NCBI GenBank assembly: GCA_963793305.1
Contig: CAWBZV010000003.1
Location: 640,001-704,000 of the forward strand
Direction of reading: 5' to 3'
Length of the DNA stretch: 64,000 bases
DNA from: an uncultured Gemmatimonadales bacterium
Lineage (GTDB): Bacteria > Gemmatimonadota > Gemmatimonadetes > Gemmatimonadales > Gemmatimonadaceae
Positions 1 to 64,000 of the stretch are shown piece after piece. A program made the position numbers. Each line of letters starts with the position of its first letter. The first letter of the stretch is position 1.

Positions 1-3000
1 CTGGAGTCGAAAGCCTATGCGCAGCGTGGGCAAGGTGACCTGGGCGGCGCGCGCGCCACGCTCGAGCGAGCGCTCGATGTCGCGCCCACCAACTTCGAGA
101 TCATCGAGCTCGACGCCATGACGTATCTCATGGGCGGCGATCTCCAGGGCGCGCGGCATGTCCTCCACCAGGCGAGCGCACGGGTCGACTCGGCCGCGCT
201 CTTCGCGTATGTGGCGACGACGTACGACCTGTACTGGGTGCTCGACGACGCCGAGCAGCGGGCGCTTCTGGCGATGGGGCCCGGGGAGAGCTCGCGGCGC
301 GATTGGGCGCTGGCGCTCGCGCACACCTACTGGTTGCGTGGGCGCTCGGATGCGGCGAAGGCGTACGCCGACTCGGCGCTGGCTGCGCCGCAAGGGACCG
401 GCGCTCAGGATATTGCGCTGCTCGGCGTGGCCGAGGCGTATGACGGGCGCCGCGAGGATGCGGTACGCCATGGACATCAGGCCGTGACTGCCGATCCCAT
501 CGCGACGGATCGGCAGAATGGGCCCTATACCGAGATGTTACTGGCGCGCATCTGGATGCTGGCCGGCCAGCCCGACAGTGCGGCGGCGGCGCTCGCGGTT
601 GCCGAGAAGGTCCCTGGGTTCTATCTCACGCCGGCGTGGTTGACAATAGATCCGACGTGGGCGCACGTTTTCAGAAAATAGGAGAGGCTATGCGGAAACT
701 CGTGATGGCGGTGGCATGCGTCGTAGGCGCGATCGTGCTCGCGCCCGCGGTGGGGGGAGCGCAGTCGACGGCGACGGCGGCGATGGTCACGTGTAAGGAC
801 GGGACGACCTCGAAGGGCGGGCAGGGGGCATGCTCGCACCACGGTGGCATCGCTACGGCTTCGCCTACCGGTGCCATGACGACCAGCACGCCTGGAGGCG
901 GCAAGATCCCCAATCAGACCCCGGCTCCGGCTACGGCTCCTAAGCCGACCAAGACCGGGGCGACGGCGGACTCCGTCGGATCCATCGCGCAGTGCACCGA
1001 CGGCATGTTTTGGGACGGCACCGTGCGGCCAGGGGCATGCTCTGGGCACAAGGGTGTGAAGCGCTGGATGGCGGGCGCGCCGGCGAAGTAACCGCAGTCT
1101 GTAGCTCGGGGCCGCGTGTCGACATGGCACGCGGCCCCTTTTTGTGCGCGTCGCCTTCGGCGAACGCGCAATCGCCCTCGCGAATGTCCCCACCACGTGC
1201 CGCCGCTAACGCGAACGACGCGCCTTGCGTCTCACTCATCGACATCGCGTAGCATGCGACATGCGCGCGTGCCCGTGTGCACGCGTCTCGTGTGATGCGC
1301 GTCACGCCGAAGGCGTGCGCGCGCACGAGTGAGCAAGTCAGGTGATCAAGCACGTGTAGTATGCAGACACCTCGAAGTTCTGCGTTCGGTCCTGCACCAA
1401 GTTCTCGGAGTCGCTCGTATGCGCCGCGCAATCGCTCTTCTACTCAGTGTGATCTCGATCACGTCCGCCCAAGCTCAAGACTCGACGTCAATGTCGGCGA
1501 GAGTCACCGCCGCAAAGCAGTGGGCGACGACGTTCGTATATGGCGTGGTACCGGCCGCCGTGGCCCAGGCGGCAGCGCAATGCCAGGATGGCCTCGCGAA
1601 AGTACGAAGGGGCCAGACGCCGGCGAACACGCTGGTGAGCATCGTGACGATCGGCATGTTCAACCCGATCACGATCCTCGTGACGTGCGCTCTGCCGAGC
1701 GAGAAGCCGGCGATCGATGTGCCGGCCGACGCCACGCTGGATGAGCGGAGAAATGCGCTGGCGGACGCCGTCGATGAGTCGCTCAAGACCCATCGCCCGG
1801 TCGTGGTTCGCTACACGACGGGCTGAGGTACAGCGGCCGAGAGCGGAGATTCGAGCAGCGTATCCATCGCGTCGGCCGTGATCGGACGCGAGAAGTAGTT
1901 CCCTTGCCCGAGGTGGCAGCCCAGCACGCGTAACTGCGCCAGCTGCCCCTCGGACTCGATGCCCTCGGCGCTCGTCTGCAACTTGAGCGTCTGCCCGAGC
2001 CCGATGATGGCTCGCCCCACGTCGTCGAACGGCTTCGCGATCTTGAGGATGTCGATCGGAAACTGCCGAAGCGAACCGAGCGACGAGTACCCGGTGCCGA
2101 AGTCATCGATCGCCACGCGCACGGACAGCGTCTTGAGCGCCCTCAAGTGTGTCAGCATGAGTTCGGTCTGCTGCATGAGCGCGCTCTCCGTGACCTCGAG
2201 CACCAACGTCGACGGCGGCAGCTCGAACTCGACGAGGGCCGAGCGCAGCGCCTCCATGAGCGTCGGATGCTGGATCTGCTGCGCGGAAAAGTTGACACTG
2301 ATGGTGAGCGGCATGACGCGCGGATGCGCGAGCTGCCAGCGTCGCGCCCGGCGACAGGCCTCTCTCAACACCCATCGCCCAATCGGCACGATGAGCCCGG
2401 TCTCCTCGGCCACCGGCATGAACTCCGCCGGGGTCAGCGTCCCGCGCCGTGGATGCTCCCAGCGCATCAGTGCCTCGACGCCCACGATCGCCCCGCTCGC
2501 GATCTCGAAGATGGGCTGATAGCGCAGCGACAGCTCGTTCCGCTCAACGGCCTGGCGGAGCTCGGCCGCCATCTCGAGCCGCGCGATCGTCTCGGCGTAC
2601 ATGCTCGCCTCGAAGAGCTCATACCGCGCCTTCCCGCGCGCTTTCGCTTGGTACATCGCGGTATCGGCGTTGCGCAGCAGCTCGGATGGGCTCAAGTCAG
2701 GCGTCGCGACCGCGATCCCGATGCTCGCTGACGCGTAGACCTCTTTCCCGTCGACAATGAACGGCTCCCGCAGCGCCGCGGTAATGCGCTCGGCCGCCGC
2801 GGTCGGCGCCATGGGCCCCGACGCGTCCTCAAGCAGAATCGCGAACTCGTCGCCGCCGAGTCGCGCGACGGTGTCGCTCGTGCGCACCGCGTCGCAGAGG
2901 CGCCGCGCGATCGTGGACAGGAGCTGATCGGCCGGCAGATGGCCGAAGCTATCGTTCAGCGTCTTGAAGTTGTCGATGTCGAGGAACAACACCGCGACCG

Positions 3001-63000: not shown

Positions 63001-64000
63001 ACTCGACTCCACCGGCCAGATCCAACTCGAGCACGGCGTCAACGTCACGCGCTACCTGGGCTGGAGCGAGGGCCGCTTGCAGTACCAGCTCGCGCCGCTC
63101 GACGAGATCATCGCCGATCTCGACCGCTGGTACGATGTCGACATCCGCCTCGCGGACTCCTCGCTCAACACGACGCGCGTCACGATGTCGGTCACCGGCA
63201 AGTCGGTGGACGACGTCATGACCGTGCTCGCCGCGGCCCTCGCGCTGCACGTCGAGCGCAAGGGTCGAGTCATCCGGATGTATTAGCTCCGAGATGAACT
63301 GGCTCACGCCGTCTATCAGCGCGGGAACGACCGGCATGGTGGGATCCGTATAGGCGGGCAGCTGCTTGTCGAGATCGCCCGTGGGCACCGATTTCAGGAC
63401 GTGGTTCATGCCAGTGATGATCAGTCGCTGCGCCCCGGGCGCCGCGCGCGCCAGGATGTCGCCCTCCGCGACGGGCACCTGCACGTCACTCGTGCCGCTC
63501 ACGATCAGGATCGGGACGTTCAGTTGAGCGATTTCCTTCGCCGGGTCGATCGCGAATACCGACAGCAGGTAGTCCTGCACACTCGGCCGAAACAGCGGCA
63601 TGAGCAGCGGCTCGACATGCGCGACGTGATGTCCCGCGGCAAGCGTGTCCAACTCGGCCAGCGCCTCGGGTAAGAGTGTGCCGACGTTGCCCTCATTGAG
63701 TTGACCGCGCAGCACGTCTGCCGCGGGTCGTCCGGCGCCGGCGATCGAGACGAAGGCATTGGCGCCGGGCGGTCGCGCGGCCGCCATCATACCGGCGAGC
63801 GACCCTTCGCTATGCCCGATCACGATGACGCGGGAGAACCGCTGGTCCTTGCGGAGCAACGCGATCCATCCCGCGGCATCGTCCACGAGATCCGTGAACC
63901 GCAACTCTTCCTCGGAGGGCGCGGTCGTTCGGCTCTCGCCGACGCCGCGGCGATCGTAGCGCAGCGACGCGATACCATACAACGCGAGTCCCTCGGCCAG

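Follow-up and report, generated by a model that had tools for sequence, protein, structure and literature searches.

The question raised by this locus is what a soil bacterium does with tRNA genes that combine a leucine-type body with an alanine anticodon. An earlier note had reported three such 87-nt genes with the anticodon CGC on contig C3 of the genome studied here (G000), and ARAGORN reproduced them at 451773-451859 (+; tRNA a), 636248-636334 (+; tRNA b), and 709201-709287 (−; tRNA c). The window, that is, the whole analyzed stretch of 64,000 nt (C3:640001-704000), itself contains no tRNA gene. The nearest two are located 3.7 kb before and 5.2 kb after it, and all module features described below lie outside the window.

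All three tRNAs possess a long variable arm, A14, A15:U48, G18G19, A20a, A73, and C3-G70, as well as a 7-nt anticodon loop (YU-CGC-AA); tRNA b has a C31.A39 mismatch. As their anticodon is CGC and not a leucine anticodon (NAG, YAA), they are not normal tRNA-Leu isoacceptors, and they lack the G3.U70 pair of AlaRS substrates. They do carry A73 and the tRNA-Leu identity elements A15:U48, G18G19, A20a, and long variable arm, according to rules established for E. coli and A. aeolicus rather than Gemmatimonadota (PMC9976931). In global alignments the three shared 76–82% identity with each other, 59–74% with the host tRNA-Leu, and 52–57% with tRNA-Ala(CGC). The nearest normal tRNAs are indeed tRNA-Leu, as the note had stated, at values slightly lower than those it gave. 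The normal complement was also present, comprising two tRNA-Ala(CGC), five tRNA-Leu, and one LeuRS; a second, weak LeuRS match is a 936-aa ORF taken to be another synthetase. GCG ranks first among the codons of G000 (63.7 per 1000 in 2008 long ORFs). The proposal that the tRNAs are aimed at the commonest codon thus applies to CGC in G000, but not to the family as a whole, whose targets occupy ranks 1 to 41 of G000 codon usage.

Previously regarded as stand-alone genes, these tRNAs are in fact flanked by two predicted elements that had been overlooked. Downstream of each tRNA, in the same orientation, lie a sigma70-type promoter, a predicted antisense RNA of 50–80 nt, and a terminator, and upstream there is a leader predicted to fold back onto the tRNA; the entire module measures about 300–350 bp. 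Within 250 nt downstream, exact antisense stretches of 14, 16, and 20 nt were found for tRNAs a, b, and c, respectively, compared to no more than 10 nt for 56 other G000 calls tested.

Module a lies between mutS and a TonB_C gene. Its leader (C3:451697-451772, +), downstream of a −10-like TATATT (451686-451691), is predicted to pair with the D arm, the anticodon arm, and the trailer, and the fold-back is 15.3 kcal/mol below the cloverleaf-constrained fold. The antisense promoter TTGACG-17-TAGATT (C3:451889-451917, +), a consensus match only, precedes the predicted antisense RNA and terminator (C3:451922-451997, +). The complementarity of this RNA to tRNA a covers an exact 14-nt stretch of the variable arm, as well as the D loop, and skips the anticodon arm. 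Module b, upstream of a radical SAM gene (Pfam match on the orthologue in G005), has a weak and uncertain promoter-like site, ATGACG-17-TATCAG (C3:636142-636170, +), a fold-back leader at about C3:636176-636247 (+) that is 13.3 kcal/mol below the cloverleaf-constrained fold, an antisense promoter TTGCCT-17-TAAATT (C3:636349-636377, +), again identified by consensus match only, and a predicted antisense RNA with terminator (C3:636382-636431, +) that matches 16 nt exactly across the anticodon arm. Module c is encoded on the minus strand between convergent S9 peptidase and PP2C genes. Its promoter ATGACG-17-TATACT (C3:709397-709369) is followed by a leader (about C3:709363-709288) whose fold-back is only 2.2 kcal/mol below the cloverleaf-constrained fold. 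Downstream of tRNA c are two antisense units. The first, with the promoter TTGACC-17-TAAATT (C3:709174-709146) and a predicted RNA plus terminator at C3:709141-709091, matches 20 nt exactly across the anticodon arm. The second has the promoter TTGATT-17-TAGATT (C3:709062-709035) and a predicted RNA, then a terminator (C3:709030-708980); 14.5 of 15 flanking positions match the arm of tRNA c, and the triplet opposite the anticodon is CCT, which fits an AGG version of this tRNA.

The arrangement recurs among Gemmatimonadota, where 44 of 46 distinct non-Leu class II tRNAs reached an antisense score ≥12, compared to 2 of 51 normal tRNA-Leu; outside this phylum, 23 of 28 non-Leu class II matches had no antisense. 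We assembled a set of 74 modules, which was selected by antisense score and includes related, hence not independent, genomes. The best promoter score was ≥11.5 in 97% of 69 modules as opposed to 9% of shuffles, TTGAC occurred in 54/74 modules versus 3/51 in the comparison, and the antisense −10 box ended 5–8 nt before the partner of tRNA nt 43 in 61/69. A terminator followed the antisense segment in 66 of the 74 modules and separated tRNA and antisense in one. The triplet facing the anticodon paired in all 64 in-register modules (62 exactly, two with G.U). After dereplication to 39 modules, the anticodon positions showed 100% Watson-Crick pairing versus 32–48% (maximum 74%) with shuffled partners, and the variable stem positions paired in 79–92% versus 28–38%. 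In a held-out set, for which only flanking bases were used to choose the register, 17/17 new intact tRNAs had the exact triplet. The antisense triplet changes along with the anticodon at syntenic sites, and the antisense ranked its own tRNA first in 48/61 cases. The mean duplex energy was −34.8 kcal/mol with the own tRNA and −22.9 kcal/mol with other tRNAs of the same anticodon, as calculated for unmodified RNA with a cofolding approach that predicts cloverleaves poorly. One intact tRNA (locus L150) has an antisense that mismatches its anticodon arm. Taken together, these patterns make it very probable that the antisense RNA regulates its tRNA.

The leader gave a more modest signal. Its pairing with the D arm reached 0.40 family-wide compared to 0.19–0.21 after shuffling, and its triplet matched the anticodon in only 10/39 modules, a mostly negative result obtained with a crude register. 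An upstream GTGTCGCAG motif was considered as an operator or ECF promoter and dropped, because the motif pairs with the D arm and varies along with it; its presence is explained by the leader pairing.

Leucine identity is retained across the family. A73 occurred in 74/74, U48 (and hence A15:U48) in 73/74, and G51-C63 in 71/74 modules, all at positions left free in the search pattern, which imposed A15, G18G19, and A20a. The variable arm spans 13–18 nt, and G3.U70 was found in none of the 22 modules with an alanine anticodon. The T stem resembles that of the host tRNA-Leu, and the G51-C63 pair would favour EF-Tu binding. The anticodon switch that had been described for the syntenic MutS/tRNA/TonB_C locus was recovered as well, with CGC in G000 and G003, CUC in G001, and CAC in G004. 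Judged by sequence, Leu identity and anticodon switching of these tRNAs therefore hold up. In a tree of the tRNA bodies (81 columns, 91 rows, L242 left out), which is too weak for counting origins, the modules were intermixed with normal tRNA-Leu, and they may have more than one origin.

Most modules occupy fixed, inherited positions among ordinary genes. An nhmmer profile detected only modules a, b, and c in G000, apart from normal tRNA genes and two weak partial matches. The site of module c is empty in G004. At the ro60/rtcB junction of G000 (about C3:293470-293560, −) a fourth module has left a scar, in which the upstream region and the terminator are kept and leader, tRNA, and antisense have been deleted together; the site is intact in G001 (GGC), G003 (GGC), G004 (GGA), and G005 (CGC). 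At two further loci, L421 (the same locus as L036) and L039, the tRNA is broken and the antisense intact. Among 60 flanking ORFs scanned we found no protein neighbour common to the modules and no synthetase, aminoacyl-transferase, integrase, transposase, or Cas family. A dedicated synthetase or transferase partner was rejected on the basis of these 60 ORFs and of LeuRS and L/F-transferase checks of G000. Rfam returned nothing besides tRNA at gathering score in seven module loci. Four modules adjoin ro60, which had suggested a Y RNA (YrlA); this identity was discarded, as no Rfam Y RNA matched in the seven loci, and ro60 adjoins just one syntenic module site among the loci compared. Three soil RNA runs from the same study, mapped against the locus of a relative (L232), covered the tRNA only, with reads from other organisms.

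The reading that we favour, and consider reasonably likely, is that the locus encodes an RNA-only toxin-antitoxin module, in which a leucine-mistranslating tRNA is held latent and blocked by an antisense RNA. The dedicated antisense RNA and the fold-back leader lend strong indirect support to the notion of an RNA toxin voiced in the earlier note. Given the layout of promoters and terminators, the weaker upstream promoter would give rise to one long precursor transcript, which carries leader, tRNA, trailer, and antisense segment and ends at the single terminator. The folding predictions suggest that the leader pairs with D arm, anticodon arm, and trailer, which would prevent the cloverleaf and turn the precursor into a latent store; by analogy to hok/Sok, slow refolding and processing would then free the mature tRNA. 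By the E. coli identity rules, host LeuRS would charge it with leucine and EF-Tu would deliver it, so that leucine would be placed at GCG (Ala) codons and, in relatives, at Val, Arg, His, Thr, Glu, Asp, Ser, Ile, or Gly codons. That the released tRNA is Leu-charged and decodes is probable. Meanwhile, the stronger internal promoter would yield the 50–80-nt RNA, whose free 5′ end is expected to pair with the anticodon loop; the complementarity and covariation suggest that it unzips the anticodon arm and either inactivates the tRNA or targets it for degradation. If the module is lost or no longer transcribed, the short RNA would be the first to decay, and growth would be slowed by mistranslation, with addiction, dormancy, or abortive defence as the possible outcome. 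Natural mistranslating tRNAs are toxic in E. coli (PMC5389517, PMC10404621).

The same switch could serve another purpose, namely regulated and tolerable mistranslation, where stress lowers the antisense and low-level leucine incorporation diversifies the proteome or primes stress responses. The codons targeted lend some appeal to this unlikely scenario, since 49/74 modules read Ala, Val, or Ile codons, where leucine is a mild change. C33 in 9/17 held-out tRNAs and anticodon stems that are frequently weak suggest that decoding is dampened (for G33 in a mistranslating tRNA, curtailed decoding has been reported; PMC11415595), and the long inheritance at fixed sites, with three modules in each of G000, G001, G003, and G005, points in the same direction. 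However, free switching among 13 anticodons, which include the radical targets Arg, Asp, Glu, Gly, and His, speaks against a tuned proteome effect, no regulator site common to the modules was found, and the GTGTCGCAG motif is accounted for by leader/D-arm pairing. The patchy presence (26/401 family genomes for one search pattern), the scars, and the dead tRNAs with living antisense fit addiction better. Counting against the toxin-antitoxin reading itself, most modules stay at inherited sites with no integrase or transposase among the 60 neighbours scanned, and some members may be correctly charged and harmless, as 25/74 modules combine a valine anticodon with A35, C36, and A73, the ValRS identity set, and the GGU members fit ThrRS.

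It is quite improbable that the antisense controls a tRNA that does not decode at all and instead donates leucine outside the ribosome or serves as a decoy or sponge that occupies LeuRS, EF-Tu, or anticodon nucleases. The C33 variants may decode poorly, and some allo-tRNA-like species are charged yet unused in translation (PMC5389517). Against this stand the T stem similar to host tRNA-Leu with its conserved G51-C63, an antisense centred on the anticodon loop, the part relevant to decoding, and a search that found no L/F-transferase in G000 (92% complete) and no transferase among the 60 neighbours scanned. Even less credence is due to a tRNA-derived selfish or mobile repeat whose antisense merely limits its own transcript and leaves translation unaffected. 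A compact unit at many unrelated intergenic sites, and one empty site, would suit such an element, but the genomes searched hold only 1–4 copies each, the single empty site that was inspected showed no evident target duplication, and a passive repeat would have no need of the cloverleaf, A73, and Leu tertiary elements, which compensatory changes preserve. An explanation by pseudogenes, by assembly errors, or by a reassignment of GCG to leucine, for which at least one apparent frameshift near a module in G000 (in mutS) could be cited, is refuted by the covariation and a codon test, since these modules recur in independent assemblies together with the corresponding antisense changes, Ala stands opposite GCG in 57% and Leu in 2.1% of 421 aligned positions from 27 alignments (GCC similarly Ala in 54% and Leu in 2.5%; CTC Leu in 61%), and two genes for the cognate normal tRNA-Ala(CGC) are kept.

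Among known systems, the layout of the putative toxin-antitoxin module fits type I hok/Sok, where 5′-3′ fold-back keeps a full-length toxin RNA latent, processing to the active form is slow, and a short antisense RNA binds the toxin RNA (PMC9841398). The hok/Sok toxin is a small peptide, and its antitoxin gene lies on the opposite strand. The module, in contrast, needs no peptide; its candidate toxin is a tRNA, the target of the antisense, and its putative antitoxin is a unit of its own, located downstream on the same strand, so that only covariation can maintain the complementarity. Type VIII is defined by a pair of adjacent non-coding RNAs of which one can neutralise the other, and on sequence grounds the promoter, covarying complementarity, and terminator would place the module there. 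In CreTA (PMC10767807), toxin and antitoxin are likewise RNAs within 200 bp, and CreT acts on translation through tRNA; CreT, however, sequesters a host tRNA, and CreA, with its CRISPR-like repeats, represses transcription through Cascade beside cas genes, whereas the 60 neighbours scanned around the modules included no Cas family and seven module loci gave no Rfam match besides tRNA at gathering score. SdsR-RyeA also consists of two RNAs, which overlap on opposite strands (PMC8501985), unlike those of the module. In contrast to both systems, the proposed toxin is itself a tRNA, with which the antitoxin would pair directly.

The allo-tRNAs (Mukai et al. 2017, PMC5389517) likewise have a long arm and many non-cognate anticodons, mistranslate, kill E. 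coli, and occur near toxin-antitoxin genes. They have an 8/4 or 9/3 fold and Ser or Ala identity (G73/U73 or G3.U70) and stem from Acidobacteria, Clostridia, and Proteobacteria, whereas the module tRNAs show a normal 7/5 fold, A73, and Leu identity; the words 'antisense', 'LeuRS', and 'Gemmatimonad' are absent from the text and supplement file of the paper. The Streptomyces tRNA-ProX/ProRSx (PMC10404621, PMC11415595) are likewise a family of natural bacterial tRNAs that keep a single identity while their anticodons switch (Ala, Asn, Thr) and that are toxic in E. coli. Neither paper contains the word 'antisense'. These tRNAs have Pro identity and A34 and share an operon with a dedicated synthetase; the module has a Leu body, C34, no protein partner, and no synthetase among the 60 neighbours scanned.

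Natural mistranslating tRNAs are known, which raises the question of how hosts survive them; a review on tRNA-ProX calls the host function and expression timing of those tRNAs unknown (PMC11415595). In the module, the putative control element adjoins the tRNA gene, and each of its bases opposite the anticodon changes along with it. If our reading is true, the module would represent a toxin-antitoxin class with a tRNA as toxin, formally placed in type VIII yet sharing no mechanism with CreTA or SdsR-RyeA, and a compact switch for codon-specific mistranslation. Its antisense RNA would also be the first to be paired specifically with a tRNA gene, as far as our literature searches, which mainly covered openly accessible papers, could find. 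Moreover, tRNA genes annotated by their anticodon (here 'tRNA-Ala') could be latent toxins. We tentatively extend this to the proposal, which may well not hold, that mis-aimed tRNAs are a general bacterial toxin class, with the Gemmatimonadota module as a programmable, protein-free addiction or abortive-defence unit, alongside cases with two other candidate antidotes (see below). Its re-aiming through antisense duplication and retuning is suggested by the second, AGG-fitting antisense of module c.

Three additional observations concern related sequences. The tRNA on a 186-nt contig (X2 record 3) is of class II and has a CC-CUC-AC loop, and the trailer includes a TTGACTCGGC element similar to those of other modules; the contig was not counted, as such contigs show no strand and may be DNA. 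Contig C11 of G000 encodes another candidate antidote, an RNA that apparently clamps the CCA end as well as the anticodon. In Alphaproteobacteria and viral contigs, a small protein gene is a further candidate antidote.

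The window contains no tRNA genes, and the whole genome (G000) was analysed instead; every element of the modules described below falls outside the window, and positions count along the contig. ARAGORN recovered the three 87-nt class II tRNA genes with anticodon CGC that the earlier note had placed at C3:451773-451859 (+), 636248-636334 (+) and 709201-709287 (−), here termed modules a, b and c. All three possess the leucine-type body claimed for them, with A73, A15:U48, G18G19 and A20a, which PMC9976931 gives as the leucine identity set of E. coli, and G3.U70, the alanine determinant, is absent. 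Two normal tRNA-Ala(CGC) and five tRNA-Leu genes are still present alongside, and GCG is indeed the most used codon.

The genes had been described as standing alone, and the leader, promoter, antisense stretch and terminator in their flanks were overlooked. A single flank plan is common to all three. On the 5' side lies a leader of ~75 nt, loosely complementary to the D arm, the anticodon arm and the bases after A73; on the 3' side, on the same strand, a TTGAC-type promoter is followed by a segment complementary to that particular tRNA, and then by an intrinsic terminator. In a test of 59 ARAGORN calls in G000, restricted to calls with TTC close to the 3' end, the longest perfect complement in the 250 nt downstream measured 14, 16 and 20 nt for the three tRNA(CGC) genes and did not exceed 10 nt for any of the remaining 56. 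The complement is located in the anticodon arm in modules b and c, and in the variable arm and D loop in module a. Each predicted antisense RNA scored best against its own tRNA and poorly against normal tRNA-Ala(CGC).

Search patterns that required a D arm of Leu type and excluded Leu anticodons matched in 5 of 6 genus genomes, in 26 of 401 family genomes (counting G000 itself and G269, an unpublished genome whose locus was excluded from the analyses), in at least 121 GTDB stretches, in 94 metagenome stretches (NAY anticodon) and in 91 viral stretches. Matches to a second, phylum-wide pattern occurred in 15 of 401 genomes, every one in the order of G000. Parsing of 397 D-arm matches yielded 187 distinct full tRNAs, 132 with non-Leu and 55 with Leu anticodons; the remainder were duplicates, intron-bearing genes, fragments, att sites or other folds. 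An antisense score ≥12 with a start 25–110 nt downstream defined 74 non-Leu tRNAs as modules, a set thus selected for complementarity. In an unselected comparison, the score was passed by 44/46 Gemmatimonadota non-Leu tRNAs versus 2/51 normal tRNA-Leu; outside Gemmatimonadota, 5/28 non-Leu tRNAs passed, of which three are Planctomycetota modules. Among viral non-Leu tRNAs, 2/22 passed (L293, L333). One Gemmatimonadota miss, L122, is a module close to the threshold; the other, L150, has a promoter-like site and a terminator, and its antisense does not fit its own anticodon arm. In genome G453, the 3-kb locus L407 holds a complete GAC module as well as a complete CGC module.

Thirteen different anticodons occur among the 74 modules (CGC 18, CAC 14, GAC 11, GCG 10, GUG 4, GGC 3, GGU 3, CUC 2, GGA 2, GUC 2, GAU 2, GCC 2, AGC 1), a mix skewed by the search patterns, which did not include GAA. 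Where the duplex was ungapped across the anticodon, the opposing triplet was exact in 62/64 modules and formed G.U in 2/64. After dereplication (n = 39), the three anticodon positions were 100% paired (32–48% when shuffled) and variable stem positions 79–92% (28–38%). Because the modules had been picked by complementarity, we used a held-out set of 19 new matches to the phylum-wide pattern (17 intact class II, 1 class I, 1 broken); with the register set by flanking bases alone, the triplet was exact in 17/17 intact class II tRNAs. The anticodon switch at the syntenic mutS|tonB site of module a also held (CGC in G000 and, among its genus relatives, CGC in G003, CUC in G001 and CAC in G004), and the antisense tracks the anticodon in the three copies aimed at the anticodon arm. 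In G000, mutS appears to be split in two frames near C3:449640 (C3 ~449100-451640, L001:5307-7837), by assembly error or a real frameshift. The ro60|rtcB site carries GGC in G001 and G003, GGA in G004 and CGC in G005. At the sequence level, module anatomy and complementarity are established, as is the fact that this complementarity co-evolves with the anticodon. A second antisense unit in module c matches the arm of that module's tRNA but places CCT opposite the anticodon; it is the sole such case among 97 D-arm matches screened and suggests anticodon switching via a duplicated antisense. Another second antisense unit, at L012 (G003:C90 ~23590-23730), targets the D arm and the acceptor strand.

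The antisense appears to be transcribed on its own as a short RNA. In 97% of the 69 modules scored, the strongest promoter reached ≥11.5, compared with 9% of shuffles, and its −10 box ended 5–8 nt before the partner of tRNA nucleotide 43 in 61/69, so that the predicted transcription start coincides with the start of pairing. In module c, an independent scan recovered 2 sites versus 0.1 expected, namely the promoter of the tRNA and that of the first antisense unit. Terminators follow the antisense in 66/74 modules and separate tRNA from antisense in just 1/74; predicted antisense RNAs measure 51–81 nt (61 modules). With no intervening terminator, a long precursor would also contain the antisense in cis, which takes part in the predicted fold of the module c precursor. 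The fold-back is predicted to be better than a cloverleaf-constrained fold by 15.3 (a), 13.3 (b) and 2.2 (c) kcal/mol. Across the 74 modules, leader pairing was 0.40 with the D arm (0.19–0.21 for shuffled leaders, 0.16 for normal tRNA-Leu) and 0.34 with the anticodon arm (0.12–0.13 and 0.02, respectively). This leader signal is genuine, yet weaker than that of the antisense. Just 2/74 modules encode CCA.

We infer that both RNAs are transcribed and that the tRNA is leucylated, decodes and does harm; members whose anticodon reads Val or Thr codons might be charged by the cognate synthetase as well. On balance, the modules are probably toxin-antitoxin systems with the tRNA as toxin and the antisense RNA as antitoxin. 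The full-length precursor, folded back, would be inactive and slowly processed, whereupon the antisense RNA would catch the tRNA. This logic matches the latent-precursor and antisense scheme of hok/Sok, for which PMC9841398 describes an inactive folded-back full-length RNA, slow processing, antisense capture and RNase III cleavage. The modules would act like type I systems, with a tRNA replacing the toxin mRNA, and if toxicity holds they would belong to type VIII (RNA toxin, RNA antitoxin; PMC10767807), although their working mode differs from both known kinds. Mis-aimed tRNAs arrest growth in E. coli, according to reports on allo-tRNAs (PMC5389517) and tRNA-ProX (PMC10404621); identity of the modules with either was rejected on the features tested.

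The decay seen at several loci follows the pattern that would be expected if the tRNA were the harmful part. L421 has lost the 3' half of the tRNA and retains antisense and terminator; in L039 the tRNA's T loop carries an insertion, and promoter, antisense and terminator are retained; and at ro60|rtcB in G000 both tRNA and antisense are gone and the terminator remains. L150 is the single case counter to this pattern. In G004, the genes flanking module c abut and the module is missing. That the modules instead form a regulated switch for benign mistranslation seems unlikely to us, a decoy that never decodes somewhat more so, and a passive selfish repeat quite improbable. An artefact or a recoded GCG is scarcely credible. 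GCG in G000 stood opposite Ala at 57% and opposite Leu at 2.1% of 421 positions in 27 alignments; the codon retains its alanine meaning.

Among 60 flanking ORFs scanned (67 picked minus orthologous repeats), no partner gene was common to the modules, and three were of toxin-antitoxin type (HicA, HicB, a nucleotidyltransferase). Seven module loci gave no Rfam match other than tRNA at gathering score. The literature searched, mostly non-subscription, yielded no report of a tRNA gene that has an antisense RNA as its partner, nor did a word search find any mention in the available text of PMC11415595, PMC10404621, PMC7609411 and PMC5389517. Within that literature, the architecture read from these sequences appears new.

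Other odd tRNAs were encountered. A second module type, found in 3/401 family genomes, lies at G000:C11 ~51810-52230 (L431) and ~53700-54120 (L428), with homologues in G003 (L429) and G004 (L430). It comprises a long leader, an odd class I tRNA, a TTGC-type promoter, a ~110-nt RNA and a terminator. The RNA contains a UGG-led stretch complementary to the mature CCA end (16/16 in G003, 7–10 nt in the remaining copies). It also contains a hairpin loop that matches the anticodon loop and changes with it across the four copies; the RNA has no Rfam match and presumably resembles a T-box acting in trans. The tRNA at C11:53866 has the Arg anticodon GCG together with G3.U70 and A73 (Ala identity). Leu-body tRNAs with UCC, UGU, UUA (ochre), AGA or UGG from Alphaproteobacteria (L025, L058, L069, L077, L091, L111) and viruses (L286, L326, L364) are without antisense; within 35 nt follows a similar-looking gene of ~135 aa, a candidate protein antitoxin or repressor, and seven of these proteins scanned gave no Pfam match over cut-off. 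In Clostridia, Bacteroidota and Bacillota (L030, L031, L034, L061, L067, L108), tRNAs that combine a long arm, a D arm of Leu type and a GCC, ACC or UGC anticodon have just five acceptor pairs in standard register and no exact downstream antisense >7 nt. Upstream of ro60 (G000:C3 ~291580-291800; L405:1128-1252 and downstream), a tRNA-like RNA with a long anticodon-arm insert and an Rfam tRNA match is accompanied by a second related unit; the two are probably YrlA-like Y RNAs and gave no Rfam Y RNA match. A tRNA-Ile(UAU) at C5:432842-432915 (−), an anticodon rare in bacteria, is near-identical to tRNA-Ile(GAU), and G000 further encodes four CAU tRNAs and a tRNA-Sec at C11:60848-60941.
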